A DNA stretch of 25,148 bases from Bacillota bacterium (lineage in GTDB: Bacteria; Bacillota; Halanaerobiia; Halobacteroidales; Halobacteroidaceae), in the NCBI GenBank assembly GCA_051744465.1, contig JBNJDB010000009.1, forward strand, positions 1 through 25,148. The letters run 5' to 3'. The first letter of the stretch is position 1, and every line of letters starts with the position of its first letter. The notes under the pieces were generated by a model. That model saw only the letters and a program-made list of their open reading frames with translations. It was not told the DNA's origin and did no database searches. Of the stretch, positions 2,918 to 24,867 are shown one piece after another. Both the position numbers and the translations under genes were made by a program.

Positions 2918-5305
2918 TTAGAAATAAGTTTTACGTTGATTTAAAAATTTTAAAATCCCTGGTTTTCCAGCCGGAATAATAATTTCCTGCATTATTTCAC
3001 CATAATTAAAACCTAAAGCCTCTCCAGCTCTAAATTCATCCCAAGAAACACCAGTTATAGCTTTAGCTTCTTTAAAAACTAATAAACCTAAACAAGTTCC
3101 TAAAAATAAAATAAGCCACCAAGGAAGGTAATAACTATCAACACCTGTTAAATAGATAATTCCTCCAAAAGTTAATATTCCAGCCGCTAAGCTATAATAA
3201 AAAGCAATATTACGATACCAACTTTTATCAGAGTTAAGCTCTTGTAAAGAACTAATAATTAATCCTTGGTCAAATAGCAATGATAATACTGTACAAAGGA
3301 GAGCAGTTATAGCAGTTAACAAGATCTTAACTTCACTCAAAATCTGATAAATTTGGCTCCGCAAGTTAGGAACTATAGCTCCTGGAGCAGAAGATTGAAA
3401 ATTAATTTCTTCATCTACAATTGCTCTTATTTCTTGCTTAACTTTTTTAAAATCAAGATCTGTAGCAGGTAATAACAACGAAACTTCTCCTCCTGGTATC
3501 ACCTTGCCCGCTAAATAATTATCTAACAGATCAATACTAGAAGTTATTTCCTCATCTTTTAGTTTAGGTAAAGACCGCTGAATATATTCTATTTCTTTGG
3601 TAATTTCTGCAAAGTCAATCGTTTTAAGCTCATCTAATTGATTCTTAATTCTTTCTAATTTCTGTTCTAAATTTGCACTTCTATTTTCTTTAATCTCCGC
3701 TATTAAATTTGAATTAGTAATTTCCTCTAAATTAGTAGCAAGTTCAGTCTTATCTTCGACTATCAATTGCTGACTAACAACTTTAATTTCCTGCACTCGT
3801 TGTTGCCAAGCTTTAATTTCTGTTAATAAAGGGTTATATTGATTAATATAATCTATAATACCATCAGTATTAGACTCTAACTCTTTTGACAAATTAGAAA
3901 CTGTTATCTTTAATTCTTCTAAGTTATTATAATACATAGATTCAGGGCTAAACTCCTGTTTAGCCACAGTTACCTGTGATTTTATATCTGCTAACTCTTC
4001 TTCAAAACTTAAAATCATTTCTCGCATTAACTCTAATTTTTCAATAACAAACCGCAACTGAGCTAATCTCTGTTCTAGAGAATTAAGATCTGATTTTAAA
4101 ACTTGCCCATCAATTTTTTCTATATTTTGAGTGTAAGAAGCTAATTTATGATTTAAAGATTCTACATCTTCTAGAGCAGTATCTAACAAATCAAAAGAAG
4201 AAAATAATTCTTCTAAGTTATTAATTAAAGAATTAGCATCAGTAAACAGATGATTTAACTGTGGTACTAACTTATTTAACTCAGTTACTAAATAAGCTAA
4301 ATCTTGCCGAGGATTATTAATTTCTACACTTCCAATTGCTTCTGTTTGGGTAGTAGAATCTATTTTATAAGCTAAATTGTCCAAAATTTGTCTACTATCT
4401 CCAACAGTAACTACCGCTGTTGCTATCATATCATTTACACTACTAACCCGCAAGTGTAGTTGACCATCGTTTTTAGCCGGCATTACTAATTCATCACCAG
4501 CTTTTAAGGATTTATTTTCGAATAATTCAATTTTCACTTCTGTTGCATAACTTGACAAAAAACCTTTCATCTGATTCATTGTCTTTACTAATGAATCCAT
4601 ATCACTAGATTTTGTCTCAGTTATATTAGAAGCTGCTACTTCAAAATCAGAACTCACTTTAGATTCTAATTTTTCTCCTAAAGCAAATAAATCATCTCGT
4701 TGATTATCAATGGGAAATCTAAGATTCAAAGTTTGATATTGCTCTAAAATATCATTAACTTCTTCTTTAACTTGACCACTAAATTGTGGTTTGCTAACTA
4801 TTACCTCTAACTTATCACCATTAGGAAAAGTAAAATCAACATTTTTTAATTGTCCTATTTTATTTCTTAATAATTTTTTAGTCTCTGTTTTAACCCCATC
4901 AATTGTCAAACGTGGTTCAGTCATAATTGAAGTAGTAGTTACTCCTTTAATCTTTTTAAAATAATTCTCTAGTTCTAGAAATGTTTCTCGATTCTTATAT
5001 TTATCAGCTAAAGCAATAAATGAATTACTCTTGCCCACTAAACTAATCCCTGTAATTAATTCAGAGCCAGGTATTTTCTCTGCTATAACTTCTTCAATCT
5101 GCTCTATGGTTACTTCTCGTCTTTGTTGGTCTATAATTAATAATAAATCATTATTTTCATAATCACCAATTAAGCTGTTAATAGCATCACCAAAATAATA
5201 ATCACTTGCATATCCAATTACTAATGAAAGTACTGAACTCAATAAAATTGTAATTACGAACAAAATTACCAAATCTTTTTTAAAATAGGATTTAAAAAGC
5301 AGCAT
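2918..5305 (-). CDS. Large membrane protein of unknown function, presumed partner of the adjacent ABC ATPase. One N-terminal TM, a ~620-aa extracytoplasmic alpha/beta plus coiled-coil domain, three C-terminal TMs and a cytoplasmic EAA-like tail
   Basis: The ORF track runs to a TTG at 5326 (802 aa). I prefer the ATG at 5305 (MLLFKSYFKK...) because GGGAGTG lies 8 nt upstream and a TATAAT box at 5329-5334 would place the transcription start downstream of 5326. In ORF-track numbering, hydrophobic helices are at residues ~19-40, ~668-693, ~706-728 and ~733-752. Residues ~340-640 are heptad-like and helix-rich (LNKLVPQLNHLFTDANSLINNLEELF..., LEQKLERIKNQLDELK). The tail is RAGEALGFNYGEIMQEIIIPAGKPGIL. 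Confidence 0.8.
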   Translation of the reverse strand: MLLFKSYFKKDLVILFVITILLSSVLSLVIGYASDYYFGDAINSLIGDYENNDLLLIIDQQRREVTIEQIEEVIAEKIPGSELITGISLVGKSNSFIALADKYKNRETFLELENYFKKIKGVTTTSIMTEPRLTIDGVKTETKKLLRNKIGQLKNVDFTFPNGDKLEVIVSKPQFSGQVKEEVNDILEQYQTLNLRFPIDNQRDDLFALGEKLESKVSSDFEVAASNITETKSSDMDSLVKTMNQMKGFLSSYATEVKIELFENKSLKAGDELVMPAKNDGQLHLRVSSVNDMIATAVVTVGDSRQILDNLAYKIDSTTQTEAIGSVEINNPRQDLAYLVTELNKLVPQLNHLFTDANSLINNLEELFSSFDLLDTALEDVESLNHKLASYTQNIEKIDGQVLKSDLNSLEQRLAQLRFVIEKLELMREMILSFEEELADIKSQVTVAKQEFSPESMYYNNLEELKITVSNLSKELESNTDGIIDYINQYNPLLTEIKAWQQRVQEIKVVSQQLIVEDKTELATNLEEITNSNLIAEIKENRSANLEQKLERIKNQLDELKTIDFAEITKEIEYIQRSLPKLKDEEITSSIDLLDNYLAGKVIPGGEVSLLLPATDLDFKKVKQEIRAIVDEEINFQSSAPGAIVPNLRSQIYQILSEVKILLTAITALLCTVLSLLFDQGLIISSLQELNSDKSWYRNIAFYYSLAAGILTFGGIIYLTGVDSYYLPWWLILFLGTCLGLLVFKEAKAITGVSWDEFRAGEALGFNYGEIMQEIIIPAGKPGILKFLNQRKTYF

Positions 5306-5328
5306 TTTCTTCACTCCCATCCGCAAAA

Positions 5329-11407: not shown

Positions 11408-12052
11408 TTAAAATTCATTTGTGAAATTAACTCCTACAGTTAATTCAACATCATCTAATGTATCAACAAGTCCCAAATCAGCACTAATATATTGATTAAA
11501 AGCAAACTTAGAACCTAGATTAAGACCTTCATTATATTCACCCATTATAGTAGTCACAGGTAACTCTAAATTATTACTACCAGTAGAAATTGTAACGGGA
11601 TTAAGCACTTTACTAGCTCCCATAAATGCTCTAGTACCTTGATGCTGGTCATCAAAAATCCCTAAATGTCCTCTAATTCCTGCTAGAGAAGTATCTTTAC
11701 TGGCTACTAGATAGTATTCCCGATCAACAAATCCTAAAGAAAGATCTGGTTTAAATTCCTCATTTTCTTCTAGTAAATTAACCTTAATAGATGGATAAAT
11801 ATCTCCTCCATTATTTAAACCTTGGGGCCATTTTAAGTTAGCACCAACTTGCACTTTATCATTAAAACCATAATTTAGTCCAATTAAATCACTGCTACCT
11901 TTCATCTGATAGCTCAAATTCAAATCTTGTGTTGTTAAAATTTCAGCAGTTGGAATAGTTAATAATCCAGTATCACCAAAAGTATTAGCCTCTACAACAG
12001 GTACTAAAGCAAAACAAATGAGCAAAACAAGAATTATAACTTTACTTTTCAT
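11408..12052 (-). CDS. Small secreted outer-membrane beta-barrel-like protein of unknown function
   Basis: 214 aa with a signal peptide (VLLICFALVPVVEA|NTF). Alternating hydrophobic/polar strand patterns run throughout and the protein ends in a C-terminal Phe (VGVNFTNEF), as OMP sorting signals do. The N-terminal FGDTGLLTIPTAEIL motif is reminiscent of YjbH-like OM proteins. GAGGAGGA lies 6 nt before the ATG and overlaps the lpxD stop. An intrinsic terminator follows the gene. Confidence 0.6.
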   Translation of the reverse strand: MKSKVIILVLLICFALVPVVEANTFGDTGLLTIPTAEILTTQDLNLSYQMKGSSDLIGLNYGFNDKVQVGANLKWPQGLNNGGDIYPSIKVNLLEENEEFKPDLSLGFVDREYYLVASKDTSLAGIRGHLGIFDDQHQGTRAFMGASKVLNPVTISTGSNNLELPVTTIMGEYNEGLNLGSKFAFNQYISADLGLVDTLDDVELTVGVNFTNEF

Positions 12053-13177: not shown

Positions 13178-13588
13178 TTACAAGTGATCTAACACCTCTT
13201 CAGTTATATCTTCTCCACCATATCTAATTTCATCCTTATTTAAAACAAGATCATAGCCTTGTTCCTCAGCTATATCTTCGACTGCTTTAGCAATATCTTC
13301 TCTAAATTTTTCTTTTAATTGCTGCCGATATTCATTTATCTCTTGATAAGCATCTTCTTGTTTCGGTGAATTTTCAGTTTCAGGATTGTAATCTTGTTTT
13401 AGTTCTTCTACTTTAGCATTTAATTCTTCTTGATAATTCTCTGCTTTTTTACTCTGCCCCCATAACTGATCTTGGTCCACTACAGCTACTTTAAGCTCTT
13501 TCATTTTTACTTCTGGCTCAGGAGCACAACCACTAATTATACCAATTAATACTATTACTAATACTGCTAATAAAAGCTGTTTTTTCAA
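13178..13588 (-). CDS. Skp/OmpH-family periplasmic chaperone paralog with a lipoprotein signal peptide
   Basis: 136 aa with a TTG start 6 nt after GGGGGGAG and 1 nt after the upstream stop. The signal peptide ends in the lipobox I-S-G-C (Cys21). The OmpH-like core reads VAVVDQDQLWGQSKKAENYQEELNAKVEELKQ ... IAEEQGYDLVLNKDEIRYGGEDITEEVLDHL. Confidence 0.75.
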   Translation of the reverse strand: MKKQLLLAVLVIVLIGIISGCAPEPEVKMKELKVAVVDQDQLWGQSKKAENYQEELNAKVEELKQDYNPETENSPKQEDAYQEINEYRQQLKEKFREDIAKAVEDIAEEQGYDLVLNKDEIRYGGEDITEEVLDHL

Positions 13589-13589
13589 C

Positions 13590-14738
13590 CTAGTCTCCCC
13601 CCATTTGTATACCTTCTATTACTTCATCACTAAGGTCAATCTTTCCCGAATTATTCTGATAATCAGTTAATATTGTATCCACTTCTTTTTCGGCACCTAA
13701 CTGATTAACAACTTGCTGAATAGAATCTTTTCTTTTAACAATTAAATTTTCTTTTTTCTCCTCTAATTCAGCAATATTTTTCTGTAAATCTTCAGTCTTA
13801 TTTTTTACTTTTGTTGCTAATTTATTCTCAGTTGAGTTTAAATTTTCCTCAATATTAGAACTCAATTTATTCTTTCGCTTTTCTATTTCTTGTTCTAGCT
13901 CTTGATTCAATTCAGCAACTTTAGTTTCTAGCTCTTCTTCTAATTGATCTCGCTTCTTCTCATAATCAGTTTCAGCATTTTCTTCTAATTCTTTTTTATA
14001 AGCTGTTAATTCATCTTTGATTTCCTGCTCTTTATTTTTAACTTCTGGCTTTATCGTATTCCATTGTTCTTGCTCATAATCAGCTAATTTTTCATCCTTT
14101 GTTGCCTGTAATTCTTTTAATTTTTCTTTTTTTTCTTCTCTAGAACTATCAGATAAATTATTTAAACTTAATTTTAATTTCAAGTTTAAAATTCGTGAAT
14201 TATATTCTTCTTTTAAACCAAGCTTATAATCTTCGATTTCAGTATCAATCTTTTCTTTTTCAGTTGCTATATCAGCTTCTACTTGGCTTTTTAGTTTTTC
14301 TCTTTTAGTTTTAAACTTTTCAGTTACTCGCTGATTTAATTGTTGCTTATAATCAGTTAATTGCTCTTTAATTATTTGTTGTTCTTTATTTATCTGTTGT
14401 TGATAATTATCTTTTATCGCTTCAATTCTAGATTCTAATTGTTGATTAAAATTATTTGATTGTTGCTCAGTATTATTGATTATATTAGCTAAATTATCTC
14501 TTTCATTTTTTAAACTTGATTCATAATTAACAATCTGTTTTTCTAATTCTTGAATTTGCTTAGTTAAAGGATGTTTGGCTCTAATTTTTTCTAAATTTAC
14601 TACAGCCACTCTACTTGACTTATTAGCTAAATCATCTTCTAATTCATCAGTAATATTGGCATTACTATAATTGACTATTGCAACAAGAAAAATAATAAAT
14701 ATAATTGCTATAATCTCAACTAATCGCTTGTTTAACAT
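13590..14738 (-). CDS. Giant Skp/OmpH-like coiled-coil protein with an N-terminal membrane anchor
   Basis: The ORF track starts at a TTG at 14762 (390 aa). The ATG at 14738 (MLNKRLVEII...) follows AGGTGG and is preferred. A hydrophobic anchor (LVEIIAIIFIIFLVAIV) is followed by an OmpH-like N-terminal strand (RVAVVNLEKIRAKHPLTKQIQELEKQI). About 300 aa of uninterrupted charged helix follow, then an OmpH-like C-terminal strand region (EKEVDTILTDYQNNSGKIDLSDEVIEGI). Confidence 0.65.
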   Translation of the reverse strand: MLNKRLVEIIAIIFIIFLVAIVNYSNANITDELEDDLANKSSRVAVVNLEKIRAKHPLTKQIQELEKQIVNYESSLKNERDNLANIINNTEQQSNNFNQQLESRIEAIKDNYQQQINKEQQIIKEQLTDYKQQLNQRVTEKFKTKREKLKSQVEADIATEKEKIDTEIEDYKLGLKEEYNSRILNLKLKLSLNNLSDSSREEKKEKLKELQATKDEKLADYEQEQWNTIKPEVKNKEQEIKDELTAYKKELEENAETDYEKKRDQLEEELETKVAELNQELEQEIEKRKNKLSSNIEENLNSTENKLATKVKNKTEDLQKNIAELEEKKENLIVKRKDSIQQVVNQLGAEKEVDTILTDYQNNSGKIDLSDEVIEGIQMGGD

Positions 14739-14772
14739 TATTCCACCTGCCTTTTTAATCAATAAATTTAAA

Positions 14773-15219
14773 TTATTCTTCCATTTCTGCTAATACTTCT
14801 GAGGTTAAATTATACCCACCATAAATTACAGCAGACTTATCTAAGATAATTGAAATTTCTTGTTCATCAGCAACTTTTCTAATCTTTTCATTTATATCAG
14901 CAAGTACTTCGTCAATTAATTCCTGTTCTTGGCTATTAAGTTCTTCTTGATATTTTTTTAATAATTCTTGCCGTTCTTCTTTATCCATTGTCTTTCCTTT
15001 AGTTTCTAATTCTTCTTTAAACTTCTTAGCATCCCCTTCTAACTTTTGTTCTGATGATTCCTTTTGGGGATGATTTTCAAATAACTTTTGCATATCTACA
15101 TAACCTATCTCCTCTTTTAATTCCTCTTGCTTAACTTCATCCTCCGCATTAATTGGATTAGTTATAATCAAAGCTATACTTAAAATTAATAACAGAGAAA
15201 AAATAAGATTCTTCTTCAT
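14773..15219 (-). CDS. skp: Skp/OmpH-family periplasmic chaperone (canonical size, cleavable signal peptide)
   Basis: 148 aa with a signal peptide (LLLILSIALIITNPINA). Motifs are IGYVDMQKLFENHPQKESSEQKLEGDAKKFKEELE and a C-terminal ISIILDKSAVIYGGYNLTSEVLAEM. It sits directly downstream of bamA, as skp does in Proteobacteria. Confidence 0.85.
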   Translation of the reverse strand: MKKNLIFSLLLILSIALIITNPINAEDEVKQEELKEEIGYVDMQKLFENHPQKESSEQKLEGDAKKFKEELETKGKTMDKEERQELLKKYQEELNSQEQELIDEVLADINEKIRKVADEQEISIILDKSAVIYGGYNLTSEVLAEMEE

Positions 15220-15234
15220 TTCTAAAACTCCTTT

Positions 15235-16977
15235 CTAAAATTTATTCCCTAAACTAATACTAAAGTCTGATTTTTCTTCTAACTGTCCCTCAGGAGCATA
15301 TCCATAATCTAATCCTAATTGGCCCACAGGAGTATCAAACCTAATCCCTAACCCAGCTGAATAATTAAGATTATCTAACTGGAAATCATTCCGATCAAAA
15401 GCATTACCTGCATCAAGAAAAACAACACCAGTAACCTTATCTAATAATTGGGCCCGATATTCCAAATTGGCCAAGACTAAAGAATCACCAATAAAGCCAT
15501 TTTCTCCTGGCAGATAATCCTCAACTCCATCACCAGTAGTGTCCTGAGACTTATAATAGTCACTACTATAGCCTCTAACAGCATCTAAAGATGACAAATA
15601 ATAACGTTCACTACTAGGCAATTGCCCCTCACTAGTTGCTACTTTAAATCTAGTCGCTATACTATTATCATCACCAGAAGGAAAATACTCACGCCAATCC
15701 AATTTATACTTAGAATAATCAGTACTACCCCAAAAACCAGATTTCTTAACTGATATTTCTTGTCGCTCACCAGTTCGGGGGTTTAGCAAATCATCTCTAG
15801 TATCGCGAATAGTACGCATAGTTAAACTAACTGTATCATCTGATTCATTAGCTCCATCAGAAAATTCTTCATCAATTGTACTATAATCAAAATCTAAATA
15901 ACCTTTAGTATTTTCAGTTATGGGGTGTCCTACTGTTATATTTCCCCCAGTTTTGTTGACATCTACACCATCTTCAGTAGTTTCATTCTTATCATATAAA
16001 TTAAAGTCTAAACTAGTTCTAGTTCCTAAAGCCCACGGTTCATAAAAACCAATCTCAAAGTTATTTTTCTCTCCACCAAACTCCCAATTAAGATTAACCT
16101 TCTGACCGCGACCACCTAAGTTATCTTTTTCAATATTAATCTTTCCTGTGAATTTTGCTGTTGAATTATAACCAGCTCCAATATTAAAACTACCTGTCTT
16201 CTGCTCTTCTACTTCAATAATTACATTAACTTTTTGTGAATCTTCTAAACTATTGAATCTAGGATTAACAGTTTTAAAATAACCTAGGTTATAAATACTA
16301 CTAATATCTTCACGCAATTGTTGAACATCTAAGACAGATCCAGCTCCAGTAGCCATTTCTCTTCTAATTACATAATCTTTAGTAGTCTGATTCCCATTAA
16401 TCTTAATTTCGTTAATAGAACCTTCATCAACCGTCACGTGTAACTCTTCTTCATTTTTGATTGTAGCATCAGTTACCCTAGCTAAAATATAGCCTTTTTC
16501 TTGATAATATTGATTAACTTTCTCCATCCCAGAATTAAGGTTAGCTACATTTAAAATTTCTGGCTGATTAACCCCTAATAACTCTTTAACTTTAGCCGCC
16601 GGAACTTTACTAGTCCCTGAAACTTTAATTTCAGTTATCTTAGGGTTTTCCACAACTTCAAAAATCAGTTTATAACCTGCTTTATACTCTTCAAATAAAA
16701 CTTGCACATCGAAAAAGTAACCAAGATCAAAAATTGCCTGCAAATCATTATTTAATTGTTCTTGGTCAACTTCTTGACCTACTTTAGTTTTAATTTGTTC
16801 TACTATCTGCTTTTCTTTTATGACCTTGTTTCCTTTAATTTCAATATCAGTAATCTCTTTTCCTGCTAATTTATTCACTTTATCATTAATTTCTTGACTT
16901 TGAGCTGTTGCAATACCAAAATTTAATACTAATAGAATGACTACTAGATTGACTATTATCAGCTTCTTGCTCATCAC
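15235..16977 (-). CDS. bamA: BamA/Omp85 outer membrane protein assembly factor with three POTRA-like repeats
   Basis: 580 aa with a GTG (or the next ATG) start after AAGGAGG and a signal peptide ending ATAQS. Three POTRA-like units each open with I(T/N)(D/E)I(E/K)(I/V)xG(N/T): ITDIEIKGN, ITEIKVSGT, INEIKINGN. The Omp85 barrel shows RRE..., GSFNIGAGYNS and GLGIRFDTPVGQLGLDYGY, with a C-terminal Phe. Confidence 0.92.
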   Translation of the reverse strand: MMSKKLIIVNLVVILLVLNFGIATAQSQEINDKVNKLAGKEITDIEIKGNKVIKEKQIVEQIKTKVGQEVDQEQLNNDLQAIFDLGYFFDVQVLFEEYKAGYKLIFEVVENPKITEIKVSGTSKVPAAKVKELLGVNQPEILNVANLNSGMEKVNQYYQEKGYILARVTDATIKNEEELHVTVDEGSINEIKINGNQTTKDYVIRREMATGAGSVLDVQQLREDISSIYNLGYFKTVNPRFNSLEDSQKVNVIIEVEEQKTGSFNIGAGYNSTAKFTGKINIEKDNLGGRGQKVNLNWEFGGEKNNFEIGFYEPWALGTRTSLDFNLYDKNETTEDGVDVNKTGGNITVGHPITENTKGYLDFDYSTIDEEFSDGANESDDTVSLTMRTIRDTRDDLLNPRTGERQEISVKKSGFWGSTDYSKYKLDWREYFPSGDDNSIATRFKVATSEGQLPSSERYYLSSLDAVRGYSSDYYKSQDTTGDGVEDYLPGENGFIGDSLVLANLEYRAQLLDKVTGVVFLDAGNAFDRNDFQLDNLNYSAGLGIRFDTPVGQLGLDYGYAPEGQLEEKSDFSISLGNKF

Positions 16978-16997: not shown

Positions 16998-19900
16998 TTA
17001 AAATGGAATAGAAGCTTCTAATCCTAATTCATATTCACCCAAACTATCATAATTACCTTGAATCATTAAATTGTCTAATCCCTGATTAAAATAATACTCA
17101 AAGCCAATTTTTTTATTCTCTTCCAAAAACGAATGGTTATACTTCAACATGAAATCATCAAATATAAACTTGCCAAGTTCAACTTCAATACTATCATTAT
17201 CCTCTAACAATGATTTGATTCTAACTTGGTCTAAATCTAGTGATTCCTCAAAAGATCTCTCTACTTTATATATCACTTCAGTCTTAATTCCTTCACCAAT
17301 AACTCTACGCAATTCAGATGTTAAGGCCTGTTCATAATCTTTCTCTAATAAACTTCCAATACCTCCTTGCCCAGTTAATAAGGCAATAATCTCTTCTTCT
17401 GAAAGAGAAGAATCAGAACTAAGTTGATAATTAAGTTTATTAGCTGGACCAGTTAAATTTAAATAAAGATTATGATAAGGACTGGCTAAATTGTTATCAT
17501 TTTGAGCAATTGATTTATCATATATCTCAGTCTTAGCTTCTAGTTGTAAACTAGGAATATAATTATGCTGGCGGAAAACCGCTGTTCCTTCCTCTAATTC
17601 AAACTCAGTATTATAATAAGTGAAACGACCTGTATTAGATTTCAATTCTCCAATAATCCTAATTTGATCATCTATAGTTTCTAAATTTAAATCCCCGCGT
17701 TGAACTAAAATATTAATTTGATCATTAGCAACTTTCACATTTTCTTCTGGTTTAACTGTTAAATCAAGTTGCGGTTCGATTTTACTATCTCCACCAGAAC
17801 CAAATTTAGGCCAATTTACAGGAAGATTAAATCTTGTATCATAAGCTATTATTTCACCGGTGATTTCAGGTCTTAATTTGCTTCCTCTAATTTTAATATC
17901 TGCATCATTTAAACCTTGCCATGAACCATGTTCAAAGGCTATCTTTTCTCCAGCTATATCTAAATTATAATCACCTAATGCCAAACCATCTAGGCTAATA
18001 CTCCCTTGACCGCTGAAATTACCAACTCCGTAATATCCTGTTAAATCTTCTAATAATAATTTATCATTTCTAAATTTGATTTTACCATTTAAATTATTAA
18101 TCTCTCTATCCAAAACAGGATAAGAAAAGCTTCCTGCTACTACTTCTGCAGCACCAACTATTTGAGGTTCTTGCAAAGTACCCTCAATCTGCAAATTAGC
18201 ATTTCCTTTACCAGTTGCAGTTTCAATTTCGGGTACCAATAATGGTAATATACTCAAATTACCTTCTTGTAAATCTAAATTGAAATCAAATTTCTCATCA
18301 TCACTAACAGGAATTTCCCCTTGAGCTTGAACTACATTATCCCCTTCAACCTGCAACCTTTGGTCAACGATTATTTTTTCTCCATTTATTAGTTCAATAT
18401 TACCAGTTAAACTTTTATAATTCAAATTAGCTATTTCACCTGTAGTAACTTTTAACTCAGATTTAATATTAGGATTAGTAAGCTCACCTGTTAGGTGTCC
18501 AGTCAAATTAAGATTACCAGTAACTTGATAAGGCAATAAATCCAACTTATTTAAAAAATCCAAATCAAAATTCGTAGCCATTAACTCTAAATCTGAATTT
18601 TTTTGCCACCAATAATCACCCATCACTTCTAATCTTCCTTCTCCATCATTATCTTCAACTGCTAATTCTACATCAAAATAAGGCTCTTCTATAGCACCAT
18701 TAACTTCTATTTGACCACTAAAATCATAAGCAAGATTGAGAGGTAAAGGATGAAATTGATTTAAATAATCTACTGTTCCTTCTTCTACTTTAACTTTTAC
18801 TTGTTTTATCTGATTTTGCTCTAAATCTAAATTACCATTTACTTGGTATTTATTATCACCACTAGTAACTTTTATATCAGTCAAATATAGATTGTTATTT
18901 TTATAATCTAATCTACCATTTAAATCGCCAATCGATTTTTCAGCAAATTCTAAATTGTGTGTATTAAATTTTGAAGCAACTTTAGGATTATTTAAATCCC
19001 CATAAATACTACCACTTAGTTGAGCACTACCTACCAATTCCTCTAATCTAGTAGTATAATTAATATCTTCCCAAACCAAGTTAGAGCTATCAAACTTGAA
19101 GTTTAATTCTTCTTCTACCATGGTACCACTTAAACTAAGTTGACTATCTCCATAACTTATATTACCAGAAGCTAAATTTAATTCCTCTTGTTGTTGGTCA
19201 TAATTCAACTTCAAATCTAGCTGATCAAATTTCTGTTGCTCCCCGATAACTCCTGTAGTCACTTCTAAATCACTGCTAAGCTGGGGATTAGAAAAAATAG
19301 AATCAATCTCAGTAGTAGCACTCAAATCACCTGTTAAACTCAAATCAGGAGCAATCAATTCAGAAATTTTCTTAGCTTCTAAACCTGCTGTTTCCAATTT
19401 TAAATTCGATTTTTGATTAGCAAAATCAATCACACCAGTTAACTCACTAGAATATTTTGGAATAGAGGACTCTCTAAATTGAACTTGTTCATTAGTAATA
19501 TTTAATATAGCAGTTGTACTTCCTATTTCATTTTGATCATAATCAAGATTAGTAGTAGTTACATCAGCAATTAGCTGCGGGTCAGATAGTTGACCACTTA
19601 ATTCACCAGCAAGATCTACCTGCCCTGATAGCTTATCTAATTGATGAACTTGCTCTAATTTTTCTAAATCTAAATTATTTAATTTAATATCTAAATCTAG
19701 ATTACCATCAAGATTAATTAAACCATTTGCAGAACCTTCACTTTCAGAACCCCTAAACTGGGTATTATTCAAAAATAATTTACTATTATTCAACCAAAAT
19801 TTAGTACTTATTTTTTCGAAATCATATGCTTTTATTGCCCCAGAATCTAATTTTAATGAGCCTAAAACATTTAAATCATCAGCACTTAAACCAGTACCTG

Positions 19901-21239
19901 AAATTATACTTTCTCCACTAGCAGTACCAGTTAAATCTAAATCATCTAAAAAATTCTGTTCAATATCAGATATAGCTATATTATTAAACTTAGTATTAAT
20001 TATATAATTAAGTGAATCACTAAAATCAAAATTACCATCGAGTTCAAGCATTCCCTGTTGATAGGCTAAATCAACTTGCTCTAAATTCAAAACTTGATCT
20101 TTATAATATAATTTTGCTCTTATATCTTCCATGGTAACTCCCTTAGCTTTAGCTTCCGGTATTTCAACTACACTCCATACTGTTGGATCTAAAAGAGTAC
20201 CTTTAATTTGACCTGTTATCTCTGCTTGTCCGCTAGCTCCAATCGGTTCAGAGACAAAATCATCAACAGCTGCTAATTGAAAGTCACTGAGTTCATAATC
20301 AAGATTTAATTGTGGTTCTTCCCAACCATAAATATCACCCTTGATCTTGACAGAATTATCTTTATATTGTCCAATTAACTGCTCAATATTAATTCCATAA
20401 TCATCAACTTCAAGAGCACCACTAATATTATCTAAATTTACATCCTGATAGTCTAGACTTCCATTTTGCAAAGATAAATCACCATAAAAATCATTCTGCT
20501 GGTTTAATTGGCCATTTAATTTAACTTTTCCTGCCATCAAACCTCCTAAATCTAAATCAGATGGTAAGTTTAAATAGCTTTCATCAGTTAGATTATCAAG
20601 ACTCAAATTAGAAAATTCAACTTCACCTCTGTACTTATTTTTTTCAATGATTAAATCAGTCTTGAAGTCCGCTTTTAAATCTTCTAACTGTCCATCTAAA
20701 AAGACTCCAATATCTTTATTTAAATCAATTATCCCATCAATTTCAGTTATTTTTTCAGTTAATTTAGGCGTTTCTATCTCAGCTAATCCATTATTAATAT
20801 GAATAGAAAATAAATCATTTTTTGCGTCATTGCTAGCCCCATTAGAGGATAATAAAAAACTATAATTCCATTTATCTTGTTGGACTAAATTGATAGTAGG
20901 GCTATTTAATTCAATATCTCTAATAACCTCTAAAGGTTTGGAATGATTAAATAATAAATCTATAATACTATAATTAATAACTAATTCATGGGCTTTAATT
21001 AGATCTTTTGAACTTTGATCTTTAATCACAACATCTTTAGCAGATATTTTATTAATACCACTAACTATTAATTCTTCTACTTCAATTTTAGTATTTAAAT
21101 TTGACTCTAATTTAGTTATTATAGACTCCTTAGATTCTAATAATATTCTATTTATATTAAAGTATAAGCCAATTAACAGAATAAAAACTAAACTTAATCC
21201 TATAATAACTTTTTTAGATTTTAGAAACTTTAGTTCCAT
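16998..21239 (-). CDS. tamB: TamB/AsmA-like translocation and assembly module protein (DUF490-type C-terminus)
   Basis: 1413 aa with an N-terminal signal anchor (VIIGLSLVFILLIGLYF). A very long repetitive beta-rich region carries recurring 'L.G.L.dP....dl' units. The C-terminus VELGKFIFDDFMLKYNHSF ... LEASIPF resembles the E. coli TamB DUF490 end (LGKYLSPDLYVSY). It sits directly upstream of bamA. Confidence 0.88.
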   Translation of the reverse strand: MELKFLKSKKVIIGLSLVFILLIGLYFNINRILLESKESIITKLESNLNTKIEVEELIVSGINKISAKDVVIKDQSSKDLIKAHELVINYSIIDLLFNHSKPLEVIRDIELNSPTINLVQQDKWNYSFLLSSNGASNDAKNDLFSIHINNGLAEIETPKLTEKITEIDGIIDLNKDIGVFLDGQLEDLKADFKTDLIIEKNKYRGEVEFSNLSLDNLTDESYLNLPSDLDLGGLMAGKVKLNGQLNQQNDFYGDLSLQNGSLDYQDVNLDNISGALEVDDYGINIEQLIGQYKDNSVKIKGDIYGWEEPQLNLDYELSDFQLAAVDDFVSEPIGASGQAEITGQIKGTLLDPTVWSVVEIPEAKAKGVTMEDIRAKLYYKDQVLNLEQVDLAYQQGMLELDGNFDFSDSLNYIINTKFNNIAISDIEQNFLDDLDLTGTASGESIISGTGLSADDLNVLGSLKLDSGAIKAYDFEKISTKFWLNNSKLFLNNTQFRGSESEGSANGLINLDGNLDLDIKLNNLDLEKLEQVHQLDKLSGQVDLAGELSGQLSDPQLIADVTTTNLDYDQNEIGSTTAILNITNEQVQFRESSIPKYSSELTGVIDFANQKSNLKLETAGLEAKKISELIAPDLSLTGDLSATTEIDSIFSNPQLSSDLEVTTGVIGEQQKFDQLDLKLNYDQQQEELNLASGNISYGDSQLSLSGTMVEEELNFKFDSSNLVWEDINYTTRLEELVGSAQLSGSIYGDLNNPKVASKFNTHNLEFAEKSIGDLNGRLDYKNNNLYLTDIKVTSGDNKYQVNGNLDLEQNQIKQVKVKVEEGTVDYLNQFHPLPLNLAYDFSGQIEVNGAIEEPYFDVELAVEDNDGEGRLEVMGDYWWQKNSDLELMATNFDLDFLNKLDLLPYQVTGNLNLTGHLTGELTNPNIKSELKVTTGEIANLNYKSLTGNIELINGEKIIVDQRLQVEGDNVVQAQGEIPVSDDEKFDFNLDLQEGNLSILPLLVPEIETATGKGNANLQIEGTLQEPQIVGAAEVVAGSFSYPVLDREINNLNGKIKFRNDKLLLEDLTGYYGVGNFSGQGSISLDGLALGDYNLDIAGEKIAFEHGSWQGLNDADIKIRGSKLRPEITGEIIAYDTRFNLPVNWPKFGSGGDSKIEPQLDLTVKPEENVKVANDQINILVQRGDLNLETIDDQIRIIGELKSNTGRFTYYNTEFELEEGTAVFRQHNYIPSLQLEAKTEIYDKSIAQNDNNLASPYHNLYLNLTGPANKLNYQLSSDSSLSEEEIIALLTGQGGIGSLLEKDYEQALTSELRRVIGEGIKTEVIYKVERSFEESLDLDQVRIKSLLEDNDSIEVELGKFIFDDFMLKYNHSFLEENKKIGFEYYFNQGLDNLMIQGNYDSLGEYELGLEASIPF

Positions 21240-21384: not shown

Positions 21385-23295
21385 TTAATTTTTATCTTTT
21401 TTTTCTTTCTTGGAGGAACTATTAACTTTTTCTTCTTTTTTGATTTTAATCTGTTTTCTTACTGCACCTTGTAATACATAATCTGTATCTAGTACTGATT
21501 CAGCTAAACTGTTATTATATTCAGCTGCAGGTGCTGCTTCTTCTGTATTTGCATCCTCCCCCTCTTTATCACTGTTTTGGGGATCTTCTTGAGGGTTTTC
21601 TTGAGGCTTTTCTTCTCGATTAGTTTCTTCAGATTTTTCTTGCGATTGCTGGGCTTGAGGAGAAAAACTCTTTTTCAATTGAACAACTAATTGATTATTC
21701 TGCTTTTGCTCATTATAAATTTCAATTAATTCTTCTAAACTTTTAATATTATTAGTTTTAAAATTAGAATCTCCATTTTGAGATTGAGAAGTAATCTGCT
21801 CTACATTAGCATTTTGACCACTTAATACATAAAACTCTAGATTACCATTATTAACTTCTTCTGGTACTTCAAGAGTTACATTTTTTGTGATTACTTCTTC
21901 GCGATAAGGTCTAAACTTTATTTCAGCTTCTATTTGACCACCTGGTTTCACTTCTTTTTTATCTAAATTTACTTCTTCTAATAAAGCTACTCGGGGTTCC
22001 TTATCAACTTTTACTTCTAATTTAATATTAGCAAAATTAACTTCTTGGAAGGGATTAGTTGTTAACAAACCTAAGACCTGAGAAAAATCCTCCACAGAAC
22101 TAGCTGCAACATCGCTAGAACTATTGTATAAATTATCAATTTTTAATACTTTATCTGGTAAATCACTACTCATTATTTCTAAATCAACTTGGGCTGTTCC
22201 TGCCCCTTGTCGATCAATAGTACTATCTATAGCTTGTAATAAAGCAACTGATGATAATTGTGGCAATAATTCTTCATCATGAATAATTTGCAAATTGAAA
22301 TTTTGACTAGAATCTAAATTCTTATCTACAACTTCTATTTCTAGAGGCACTACATTAGGAAATTTGCCTATTTCTCCGGCTAATCCTGCTGATCTATCTT
22401 GAGTAACCACACCTTTTAATTCAGCGGGAGATCCAATTTTAAACGGCATTTTAACACTAGTAATCATTTGATGAATATAAGCAGACGATAATAAATAATT
22501 GCTAGCTCCTTTAGATAAAAACGGATGTCCGAAGCCTAACATTTTATTTTGGTCAAGATAAGTTAATGTCCCAATAGCAGACACATTTATATCTCCACGC
22601 ACTAATTGAACGGCCACTGCACTACCTGGCTTCAATGGTATATCTTTCTTCTTAGTAGCTAAGCCGGCACTCTTAACAGTTTTCACATCATAATCATCTA
22701 ATTTATCTGCTAATTCATTCTTAGCCCTTCCTGTTACTCCATCTACTGAAAGAGGGGTGCTTACTGGCTTAGCAACTAACGTTTTGGAATCCTTAGTTGT
22801 TTCCTCGTCCGCACTAAATTTAATCTGATTGTACACATCTCCACTAACTTCAACTGGTTGATCAAGCATTATTTCTTCATTATTTTTTTCTTCTAAATTA
22901 AAAACATTTAACATATCTTCAATTGGAGTTACCATCCCAATTTTATGATTAGCCATCTGCCAACCATAACCAATTGCTCCAATTAACTTCCCTTCTACAT
23001 AAACTGGACTACCACTCATTCCCGAAGCAATCCCACCGGTTCTTTCTATTACATCACCACTGGTTTTCACTAAAATTAAATTTTGACCTGGATTTTGATC
23101 TTCTAAAATACTAACTACTTCTACAGCAAACTCTTCAACCTCTGTTCCTCTTAAAACTGTTTTACCTACTCCTTGCATTCCTGATTCTAATTCTTCTAGA
23201 GGCATAATTTCTGGCTTTGCTAATGCTAGATTAGATAATAATAAAACAAATAATCCAGCTATAAAAATTTTACTCCAAACTCTTTTCAAATCCAT
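21385..23295 (-). CDS. Secreted peptidase S55 (SpoIVB-type) domain protein with reversed lobe order and a low-complexity charged C-terminal tail
   Basis: 636 aa with a signal peptide (FIAGLFVLLLSNLALA|KPE). Residues ~31-130 align with the SpoIVB C-terminal Ser lobe (EVEEFAVEVV...ERTGGIASGMSGSPVYVEGKLIGAIGYGW...IEDML). Residues ~225-300 align with the SpoIVB His lobe (SAIGTLTYLDQNKMLGFGHPF). The tail is rich in Q/E/K/P. Confidence 0.8.
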   Translation of the reverse strand: MDLKRVWSKIFIAGLFVLLLSNLALAKPEIMPLEELESGMQGVGKTVLRGTEVEEFAVEVVSILEDQNPGQNLILVKTSGDVIERTGGIASGMSGSPVYVEGKLIGAIGYGWQMANHKIGMVTPIEDMLNVFNLEEKNNEEIMLDQPVEVSGDVYNQIKFSADEETTKDSKTLVAKPVSTPLSVDGVTGRAKNELADKLDDYDVKTVKSAGLATKKKDIPLKPGSAVAVQLVRGDINVSAIGTLTYLDQNKMLGFGHPFLSKGASNYLLSSAYIHQMITSVKMPFKIGSPAELKGVVTQDRSAGLAGEIGKFPNVVPLEIEVVDKNLDSSQNFNLQIIHDEELLPQLSSVALLQAIDSTIDRQGAGTAQVDLEIMSSDLPDKVLKIDNLYNSSSDVAASSVEDFSQVLGLLTTNPFQEVNFANIKLEVKVDKEPRVALLEEVNLDKKEVKPGGQIEAEIKFRPYREEVITKNVTLEVPEEVNNGNLEFYVLSGQNANVEQITSQSQNGDSNFKTNNIKSLEELIEIYNEQKQNNQLVVQLKKSFSPQAQQSQEKSEETNREEKPQENPQEDPQNSDKEGEDANTEEAAPAAEYNNSLAESVLDTDYVLQGAVRKQIKIKKEEKVNSSSKKEKKDKN

Positions 23296-23325: not shown

Positions 23326-23655
23326 TTACTTATTCTTTAATTGTTCATACATCGACTCAGCAATCCCTATATTATCTTTTAGTGCTGCTTTTTTGGCTAT
23401 CTCATCATGATACATATCTTTATATACATCTTCACTCATACCTGTATCTACTAAATCAGATTTAAACCCTGCTTTATCCATTTGCTTAAACATCATTCCA
23501 ATAAAAATAGATTCAAATTCTTCTGCTAATTCTTTTATTTCCTTGTTAGTTTTTTCTTTTGTACTTGTCATTTTTTCTGATTGCTTTCGTTTCTGCTGAT
23601 TATTAGCTTGCTTAGCTTTAAATTGTTGCATATCTAAATTAGCTCCTACTTTCAT
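23326..23655 (-). CDS. flgJ: Flagellar rod-binding protein (FlgJ N-terminal domain only; no muramidase domain)
   Basis: The ORF track starts at a TTG at 23676 (116 aa). The ATG at 23655 (MKVGANL...) follows GGAGTG at 6-nt spacing and is preferred. The rod-binding motif is ELAEEFESIFIGMMFKQMDK...SEDVYKDMYHDEIAKK. It sits directly downstream of flgI. Confidence 0.75.
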   Translation of the reverse strand: MKVGANLDMQQFKAKQANNQQKRKQSEKMTSTKEKTNKEIKELAEEFESIFIGMMFKQMDKAGFKSDLVDTGMSEDVYKDMYHDEIAKKAALKDNIGIAESMYEQLKNK

Positions 23656-23688
23656 TTTATTCACTCCAATCATCAACTATTAATTTAT

Positions 23689-24867
23689 TTACATAATTTC
23701 TAAATCAGCATGTAAGGCACCAGACTGTTTAATGGCTTGTAAAATCGAAATTACGTCACGAGGTTTAGCTCCCACACTATTTAACGCTTTAACAACATCA
23801 GAAATACTAGATCCTTTTGGTAATACTGTTAATCTTTGTTCTTCTTCATCAACCTCAACATCTTGATTTTCATTTTGTACAGGATCTTGTTGTTCCTCAT
23901 CATCCTCATCACCCTCATCATCTTGCTCTGGTTGAACAACTTCATTTTCAGTTGAAATAGTAACTGTTAAATTACCATGGCTAACTGAAACTTTAGAAAG
24001 CCGGACATTATGGCCCATCACAATTGTTCCTGTTCGCTCATTAATTACAACTTTAGCTTTAGTATCAGGCCTTACTGATAATTTACCCACCTGCGATACA
24101 AATTCTACTTTTCTATCGCGATAATGTTCAGGTACTTTTACTTCTACTTGTCCTGCATCTAAAGGTTTAGCATATTTTTCACCTTCAGGTGAATACCCGA
24201 ATTTACCATTAATTACCTTCGCAATATTTTCAGCTGTAGTAAAATTAGCCTCATTTACAACTAAATTGATTCGCTTATTATCACTAAAATTGCTAGGTAG
24301 AGTTTTTTCTACAAGAGCACCATTAGGAATTCTACCAACGGTTGTATGATTTTGTCGGACTTGGTCCCCACCTTGACCAGCATTAAAACCACCTATAGAA
24401 ACAGACCCTTGGCCTACTGCATAAACTTCATCTCCACTTGGCCCTTGTAAAGGAGTCATTAATAAAGTACCTCCTTGCAAACTATCAGCATCACCAATAG
24501 AAGATAAAGTTATATCAATCTCATCTCCACTCTGAGCAAAAGGGGGCAAATCAGCTGTTACCATTACTGCTGCTGCATTATTCAAACTTAAATTATCGGG
24601 ATTAACATCCACCCCAAAATTCTGTAACATATTTGCTACTGAACGAATAGTAAATTGACTACTTTGCCCATCACCAGTACCAGATAAACCAACTACTATT
24701 CCATAACCAATTAATTGATTATCTCTAACTCCTTTTACTCTAGTTATATCCTTAACCCTAACTAGTGGTTCATTATTCGATGACTGACTAGGAGTTAAAG
24801 CAACTCCTGTGTTAGTTACTAAAATTAATAACACTACAACTATAACTAGTTTAGCTATTTGCCTCAT
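23689..24867 (-). CDS. flgI: Flagellar P-ring protein FlgI
   Basis: 392 aa with a signal peptide. [31 protein letters not shown] matches the E. coli [30 protein letters not shown]. The C-terminus is [45 protein letters not shown] SD. Confidence 0.95.
   Translation of the reverse strand: [392 protein letters not shown]

Follow-up and report, generated by a model that had tools for sequence, protein, structure and literature searches.

Few enzymes have been studied as thoroughly as the chymotrypsin-fold proteases, and the order His-Asp-Ser along the chain is treated as a signature of their clan. In the periplasm, proteases of the HtrA/DegP type have an established role in the quality control of outer membrane (OM) proteins and of the envelope, and BepA, an M48 zinc metalloprotease with TPR found in the periplasm of Escherichia coli, associates with BAM and edits the assembly of OM proteins. 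SpoIVB (MEROPS S55.001, PF05580, PDB 9LNF) is the sigma-K checkpoint protease of endospore formers. Its crystal structure has a two-barrel protease domain in which His236 stands ahead of Ser378 (PMC12502668), which agrees with the order assumed when the gene described here was first read. That gene lies in a 25,148-nucleotide stretch of DNA from a member of the Halobacteroidaceae (Bacillota; assembly GCA_051744465.1, contig JBNJDB010000009.1), referred to below as the window, and encodes a secreted S55 peptidase, labeled S55p, whose Ser lobe precedes its His lobe. An earlier sequence-only reading had noted an apparent circular permutation; the analyses below leave this interpretation well supported at the level of sequence and modeled topology, by both a swapped split match to the S55 family profile and a continuous match of the de-permuted sequence.

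S55p matched the Pfam profile Peptidase_S55 (PF05580; profile length, 210; gathering cutoff, 25 bits) with 56.8 bits (E = 4.2e-15) in two stretches. As the sequence-only reading had anticipated, these pieces are in swapped order: the best stretch, residues 35 to 128, corresponds to profile positions 117 to 209, and residues 238 to 301 correspond to positions 13 to 79, so that in the native protein the stretches are not collinear with the profile and the Ser region lies ahead of the His region. The second stretch was found with the isolated fragment of residues 179 to 313 (16.2 bits; E = 0.011), for which PF05580 was the sole match among 24,736 Pfam families. When residues 216 to 338 were re-joined in silico to residues 28 to 133, the result was one continuous match spanning profile positions 13 to 209 with 67.8 bits, compared with 56.8 bits for the native sequence; a shorter re-joined sequence (216 to 313 plus 28 to 133) scored 63.6 bits. 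The continuous match of the de-permuted protein is the mark that a circular permutation leaves in the sequence, and the new termini of S55p lie, judging from these alignments, at the canonical interbarrel linker.

A linear whole-length hidden Markov model (HMM) cannot align both lobes with canonical SpoIVB, so split subalignments were used, with an alignment of 36 canonical SpoIVB proteins as the reference for profile-profile comparison by hhalign. The Ser lobe aligned with a probability of 99.3 (E = 8.6e-21), in keeping with the proposal that its context is collinear with the C-terminal end of SpoIVB. A profile search of PDB sequences with S55p retrieved SpoIVB (9LNF; E = 1.4e-10, Ser lobe) and nothing beyond it; a match to the peptidase entries 3N55/3NJJ (E = 0.6) was judged to be due to chance. 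The His lobe, which had been equated with the His236 region of SpoIVB, aligned weakly and in the right register (E = 0.018), with H257 opposite the catalytic His and GT.TY opposite GT.TF, while unrelated control segments of S55p gave E values of 0.12 to 0.48. An HMM of the His lobe built from 78 diverse family members had its best match in the His236-equivalent region (0.51 to 0.65 of the length) in 120 of 120 canonical SpoIVB proteins, with a median of 4.5 bits versus -2.9 bits for shuffled or reversed sequences. The His-lobe signal in these comparisons is real but weak, and it carries conviction only when combined with the de-permutation and the conservation of residues. A survey of homologs for the same lobe order, which the sequence-only reading had proposed, found a collinear architecture in 80 of 80 fetched loci, nonsporulating phyla included, and this argues that the order seen in S55p is due neither to chance nor to an assembly artifact.

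No PDZ domain was detected in S55p by Pfam, by an HMM of the region between the lobes, or by hhalign, in agreement with the earlier remark that none was evident. The mid-region HMM scored at the level of shuffled sequences and hhalign gave E values of 0.12 to 0.17, so that a PDZ remnant between the lobes, of the kind expected from duplication and deletion (PDZ-His-Ser twice, giving Ser-PDZ-His), was rejected, and a faint hmmsearch alignment (-2.9) was not upheld. A degenerate second Ser barrel following the His lobe was also rejected: when residues 313 to 420 were compared by hhalign with the two lobes and with SpoIVB, the E values were 0.12 to 0.48.

S55p carries the catalytic signature of PF05580, namely, a GMSGSP serine and a G-x-G-H histidine after a GT.T[FY] strand. 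GMSGSP is present as a single copy, within 100 residues of the signal peptide, and both this motif and GFGHP lie at the coordinates first assigned to them; no His precedes Ser94, as had also been pointed out, the only His residues being 117, 257, 275, and 339. S94, H257, and D300 are invariant in 49 Halanaerobiales homologs, in 78 homologs of 27 to 54% identity, and in all 80 loci, which represent about 20 phyla. Across the same sets D235 is nearly invariant, and the serine motif shows no variation at G92, G95, and P97 in the 49- and 78-sequence alignments; Gly92 is presumed to be the oxyanion-hole glycine. The linear order is Ser94, His257, Asp300, with 43 residues from H257 to D300. In chymotrypsin, His57 and Asp102 are 45 residues apart and are positioned after strand 3 and before strand 6, respectively. 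Two further candidates for catalytic residues were rejected, as neither is conserved among the 78 homologs of the wider family: H117, which is nearly invariant in the Halanaerobiales, and D81, which lies near the position of SpoIVB D363. In SpoIVB, Asp363 is about 24 Å from the catalytic His (PMC12502668). In the hhalign alignment, the residue opposite D300 is an Asn that does not vary among canonical SpoIVB proteins (N318 in the SpoIVB encoded in the same genome); if this alignment holds, S55p keeps the classical triad and SpoIVB may have lost it. The invariant Asn at the position of chymotrypsin Asp102 may also bear on the unusual triad of the SpoIVB crystal structure. As a lead only, we assume a likeness between GSPVYVEGKLIGAIGYGW and GGPVVCSGKLQGIVSWGS of trypsin.

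The AlphaFold2 model of S55p (predicted local distance difference test [pLDDT], 78.6; predicted template modeling score [pTM], 0.72) contains two six-stranded barrels as assigned by DSSP. Strands of the first barrel fall within residues 41 to 124, with the S94 loop after strand 3 and a helix (125 to 129) closing the lobe, which corresponds to the C-terminal barrel and terminal helix of the chymotrypsin/S55 fold; those of the second fall within residues 226 to 309, with H257 after strand 3 and D300 just before strand 6. In the model, S94, H257, and D300 are at textbook positions of the chymotrypsin fold, and the terminal helix is placed as in chymotrypsin. The insert of about 95 residues (132 to 225) combines a variable hairpin region with a conserved beta-alpha-beta unit (TPLxVSGxxGRA...), and the signal-peptide region is modeled as a helix (3 to 23). 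A Foldseek search of the PDB with the full model returned HtrA/DegP/DegS, MucD, Rv3671c, picornaviral 3C, trypsinogen, and SpoIVB (9LNF) with probabilities of 0.97 to 1.00, yet over 109 to 130 columns only and with E values of 0.008 to 0.14. The alignments span a single barrel, which is the outcome to be expected of a sequential aligner for a permuted protein. HtrA/DegP/DegS/DegQ and MucD (S1C), the best of these matches, resemble S55p in its modeled chymotrypsin fold and predicted periplasmic location, but in them His, Asp, and Ser follow one another in canonical order and PDZ domains lie at the C terminus, and their sequence similarity to S55p is not detectable beyond the fold.

S55p is not SpoIVB. 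The two proteins have a homologous Ser barrel (28% identity to 9LNF over 116 Foldseek columns), similar serine motifs (GMSGSP in S55p and GMSGSP[I/V] in SpoIVB), and a homologous His motif (GT.T[YF]...G[FA][GL]GH), and both are exported to a space between two membranes. In contrast to SpoIVB, however, S55p has the barrels in swapped order, has no detectable counterpart of the PDZ domain that lies N terminal to the protease in SpoIVB (PF17820/PF13180 in canonical homologs), carries a cleavable signal peptide instead of a membrane anchor, has an extra C-terminal module of about 320 residues, and has an invariant Asp300 where SpoIVB has an invariant Asn. The SpoIVB equivalog TIGR02860 matched S55p with 47.9 bits over profile positions 313 to 397 only, compared with a cutoff of 305.25 bits. 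A separate, canonical SpoIVB is encoded on another contig of the same genome (C57; 457 amino acids; PF05580 positions 2 to 210; 264.6 bits), where it adjoins a candidate Spo0A-like response-regulator gene, read by eye.

An exhaustive HMMER search yielded 6,714 representatives of 50%-identity clusters at E values of ≤1e-3 and 2,150 at ≤1e-30; some representatives of the S55p family are 1,340 to 1,515 amino acids long. A scan of genomes placed relatives in at least 596 species, all collinear with S55p among the matches listed (596 of the 600 listed stretches encode a relative). Among the listed relatives are members of the Negativicutes (Veillonella parvula, Megasphaera, Dialister, and Sporomusaceae), Limnochordia, Synergistota, Caldatribacteriota, Armatimonadota, Thermotogota, Planctomycetota (Kuenenia), Gemmatimonadota, Acidobacteriota/Aminicenantes, Latescibacterota, Zixibacteria, Dormibacterota, and Bipolaricaulota. 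Unlike SpoIVB, S55p extends to nonsporulating phyla. In a tree of the Ser lobe, it forms a separate clade, parted from canonical SpoIVB by a single branch with full support (about 3 substitutions per site), and the order within the S55p clade roughly follows taxonomy. This pattern fits a single ancient origin followed by mostly vertical descent. As far as sampled, the family is confined to bacteria that have an OM.

The association with the OM was also seen within the phylum, in a sample of 121 genomes searched for S55 and Omp85. The half-domain S55p signature was present in 26 of the 29 BamA-positive genomes and in none of the 92 BamA-negative ones; the three BamA-positive genomes without it belong to one family, two of them being 72 to 86% complete and the third 97%. 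S55p lies 3 to 11 kb from bamA on the same contig in 18 genomes. Because related genomes are not independent, this co-occurrence describes a pattern and does not amount to a statistical test. In the window, the genes are ordered flgI, flgJ-like, S55p, tamB, bamA, three skp genes, lpxD, lptF/G, lptC/A, lptB, lpxC, fabZ, and lpxA, so that S55p does sit within an OM/flagellar cluster (flgI-flgJ/tamB-bamA), as had been read from the sequence. S55p is followed by tamB-bamA in the Halanaerobiales, the Limnochordia, and one metagenome-assembled genome (MAG) of the Armatimonadota and by mlaE-mlaF-mlaD-tolC-tamB in the Negativicutes; in a Synergistaceae MAG and in GBS-1, the genes after S55p are mlaE and one encoding an ABC-ATPase. 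In Veillonella parvula, it ends 30 nucleotides (nt) before mlaE, the first gene of an operon that has been studied previously (PMC10665443). In Acetonema longum, only two proteins copurified with BamA (2026; PMC13018214), one of them the S55-domain protein F7NM31, and the accessions of that study (MlaD, F7NM28; TolC, F7NM27; SonB, F7NM24; BamA, F7NM23; SonA, F7NM22) reproduce the gene order of the Negativicutes, from which we infer that F7NM31 is the S55p ortholog. Together with the synteny, this coimmunoprecipitation suggests, by analogy and as a lead, an association of S55p with BamA comparable to that of BepA with BAM, although the fold and catalytic type of BepA are unrelated to those of S55p.

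The explanation that we favor, with a probability of about 0.72, is that S55p is a serine endopeptidase exported by Sec to the periplasm, with an S55/chymotrypsin fold whose barrels are circularly permuted, likely acting in processing or quality control during OM biogenesis. The barrel that would supply the nucleophile and the oxyanion hole (GMSGSP, Ser94), with the old C-terminal helix, would come first; the insert would join the old C terminus to the old N terminus; and the barrel with the putative general base and its partner (His257 and Asp300) would follow. The two barrels would pack as in ordinary clan PA proteases and form a Ser-His-Asp triad, and a family-specific C-terminal module (313 to 620) would follow the protease part. 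Proteolytic processing or quality control in OM biogenesis, together with BamA, TamB, or Mla, is the most likely role, given the gene neighborhood and the single coimmunoprecipitation.

Several points weigh against this explanation. The His lobe by itself scores below the 25-bit cutoff of PF05580, and its hhalign E value of 0.018 is to be set against 0.12 to 0.48 for the controls. All of the full-model Foldseek E values exceed 1e-3, and both the juxtaposition of Ser94, His257, and Asp300 in space and the enzymatic activity are predictions. The functional link consists of synteny, three peptides in one coimmunoprecipitation, and orthology by accession order; the neighbor of S55p in several other phyla is a beta-propeller protein and not tamB or bamA; and in the window, a terminator-like hairpin separates S55p from tamB and groups it with flgI-flgJ.

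The marginal scores of the His lobe could mean that the second barrel is not an S55 His barrel at all but an unrelated beta-barrel, which would make S55p a half-protease using other residues or a noncatalytic binding protein. This is very improbable, since S55 is the only Pfam family to match the fragment, the His-lobe HMM lands on the His region in every canonical protein examined, the de-permuted sequence aligns continuously, and H257 and D300, spaced and placed relative to the strands much as in chymotrypsin, are invariant over some 20 phyla; moreover, a clan PA active site cannot form from a lone C-terminal barrel. The length and partial disorder of the linker between the lobes would instead allow pairing between chains, with the Ser lobe of one subunit and the His lobe of another meeting in a domain-swapped dimer or oligomer, and some genomes do encode two tandem paralogs upstream of tamB. 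S55p is, however, a single-copy gene in most genomes, the model is that of a confident monomer (pTM, 0.72), and no data specifically call for swapping, all of which makes interchain pairing a quite unlikely arrangement. Tandem paralogs directly upstream of tamB were observed in an Armatimonadota MAG and in unclassified MAGs (loci L022, L023, L024, and L031).

A different function is suggested by the local gene order. Only 30 nt separate S55p from the flgJ-like gene, and this short gap, the hairpin 3' of S55p, and the promoter-like site before tamB make S55p look like the last gene of a flagellar-ring unit. The flgI-flgJ-S55p order recurs in many flagellated Halanaerobiales and Negativicutes, and the FlgJ-like protein consists of the rod-binding domain alone, without the peptidoglycan hydrolase domain. 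S55p could then be a flagellar assembly factor that processes components of the P/L ring or rod or that substitutes for the missing hydrolase half of FlgJ. Veillonella is nonmotile, however, and S55p is kept there and in many loci of other phyla in which flgI and flgJ were not detected within 6 kb and in which it abuts mlaEFD or tamB; this argues against a purely flagellar role, and the coimmunoprecipitation was with BamA. We therefore regard the flagellar explanation as unlikely and prefer a role of S55p in OM biogenesis.

Our literature search found no paper on circular permutation of S55 or chymotrypsin-like proteases, and nothing on the S55p family apart from one sentence on coimmunoprecipitation (PMC13018214); the gene is not mentioned in the OM-cluster papers of Antunes (2016) and Grasekamp (2023) or in the V. 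parvula mla operon paper (PMC10665443). S55p belongs to a large S55 family with swapped lobes, one that is essentially undescribed and whose occurrence follows the OM. Because just half of the domain is recognized, database entries are labeled only "S55 domain-containing." A large natural family with swapped barrels would bear on the evolution and folding of the chymotrypsin fold. The tracking of the OM, the synteny, and the copurification of the likely A. longum ortholog with BamA mark S55p as a concrete candidate, amenable to genetics, for the part of a missing accessory factor in OM biogenesis in diderm Firmicutes and other Terrabacteria. A more far-reaching scenario, which we consider doubtful, is that S55p is a dedicated and ancient protease subunit or partner of BamA/TamB/Mla in diderms of the Terrabacteria type (without BamB-E), dating from the diderm Firmicutes ancestor or earlier, that SpoIVB is a relative recruited to forespore intermembrane signaling, and that the family represents the first natural permutation of barrel order in the chymotrypsin fold, as far as found. 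If true, this would tie sporulation signaling to OM biogenesis.

TABLE 1 Features of S55p and its immediate surroundings (positions in the window)
Feature	Position	Strand	Basis
S55p, whole gene, 636 amino acids, secreted	21385-23295	-	ORF (open reading frame) list, Pfam
Predicted Sec signal peptide, residues 1-26; hydrophobic core, ALA/KP cleavage site (between A and K), no lipobox Cys	23218-23295	-	Sequence reading
Ser lobe, residues 28-131; 6 strands, GMSGSP loop, helix 125-129	22903-23214	-	Pfam, hhalign, DSSP on model
GMSGSP motif, residues 92-97	23005-23022	-	Invariance in alignments and 80 loci
Ser94, presumed nucleophile	23014-23016	-	Part of GMSGSP
Insert, residues 132-225, linking old C and N termini	22621-22902	-	Alignments, model
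His/Asp lobe, residues 226-312; 6 strands, corresponds to N-terminal barrel	22360-22620	-	Pfam, hhalign, invariance, DSSP
GFGHP, residues 254-258	22522-22536	-	Sequence
H257, after strand 3 of His/Asp lobe	22525-22527	-	hhalign, DSSP
D300, before strand 6 of His/Asp lobe	22396-22398	-	Invariance, DSSP
Family-specific C-terminal module, residues 313-545; two beta-beta-alpha units, then beta-sandwich	21661-22359	-	Model
Acidic Q/E/K/P low-complexity loop, residues 546-595; variable length, predicted disordered	21511-21660	-	Alignment, model
Conserved terminal strands, residues 596-620 (T604, Y606, L608, G610), packing onto C-terminal module	21436-21510	-	Alignment, model
Terminator-like hairpin and T-run directly 3' of S55p stop codon	21359-21376	-	Consensus scan only
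Promoter-like site ahead of tamB	21305-21277	-	Consensus scan only
flgI, upstream, same direction	23689-24867	-	
FlgJ-like protein, 116 amino acids, upstream of S55p, same direction	23326-23676	-	
tamB, downstream of S55p	16998-21239	-	
bamA, downstream of S55p	15235-16977	-	

Residues 313 to 636 were modeled from 61 diverse sequences with a pLDDT of 86.9. A fold search of the PDB with the C-terminal module gave no convincing analog (best E value, 0.006; probabilities of ≤0.66), with only faint beta-grasp and Ig-like resemblances, and the module had no match in Pfam or NCBIfam. The Q/E/K/P stretch, which the sequence-only reading took for a tail, proved to be an internal loop; conserved strands (596 to 618; motif T.YVL.G) come after it and fold back onto the module with a modeled pLDDT above 90.

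In the Planctomycetota, Gemmatimonadota, Aminicenantes, and Zixibacteria, the gene immediately after S55p encodes a beta-propeller/Ig-like protein of about 700 amino acids, which may be a conserved partner of S55p in those phyla; the neighbor in the Latescibacterota has an Ig-like match only. These proteins contain Reg_prop repeats and bacterial Ig-like domains and are encoded in the same direction as S55p, often overlapping it (L040, 7937 to 10132; L054, 7697 to 10000; L056, 7670 to 9781; L066, 7801 to 9957; L069, 7814 to 10048; Ig-like only in L077, 7667 to 9709). Upstream of S55p in V. parvula is a gene for a protein with an AMIN domain and a phosphodiester-glycosidase (NAGPA) domain, preceded by mreB (L033, 4275 to 5615).

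The assembly contains a second block of flgI, flgJ-like gene, and S55p (contig C86, 1 to 2930), whose S55p is about 65% identical to that of the window, and a second full-length bamA on contig C124; this reflects either a duplication of the cluster or, despite an estimated contamination of 0.83%, a mixture of two related populations in the MAG. Within the lpt/lpx cluster of the window, two ORFs on the minus strand, of 802 amino acids (2918 to 5326) and 214 amino acids (11408 to 12052), have no Pfam match and are candidate components of the OM cluster; a homolog of the 214-amino-acid protein occupies the corresponding place in another Bacillota MAG (L032). The bamA gene is followed by three consecutive Skp/OmpH paralogs (13178 to 15219, minus strand), one of which, at 390 amino acids, has a long apolipoprotein-like coiled-coil extension.

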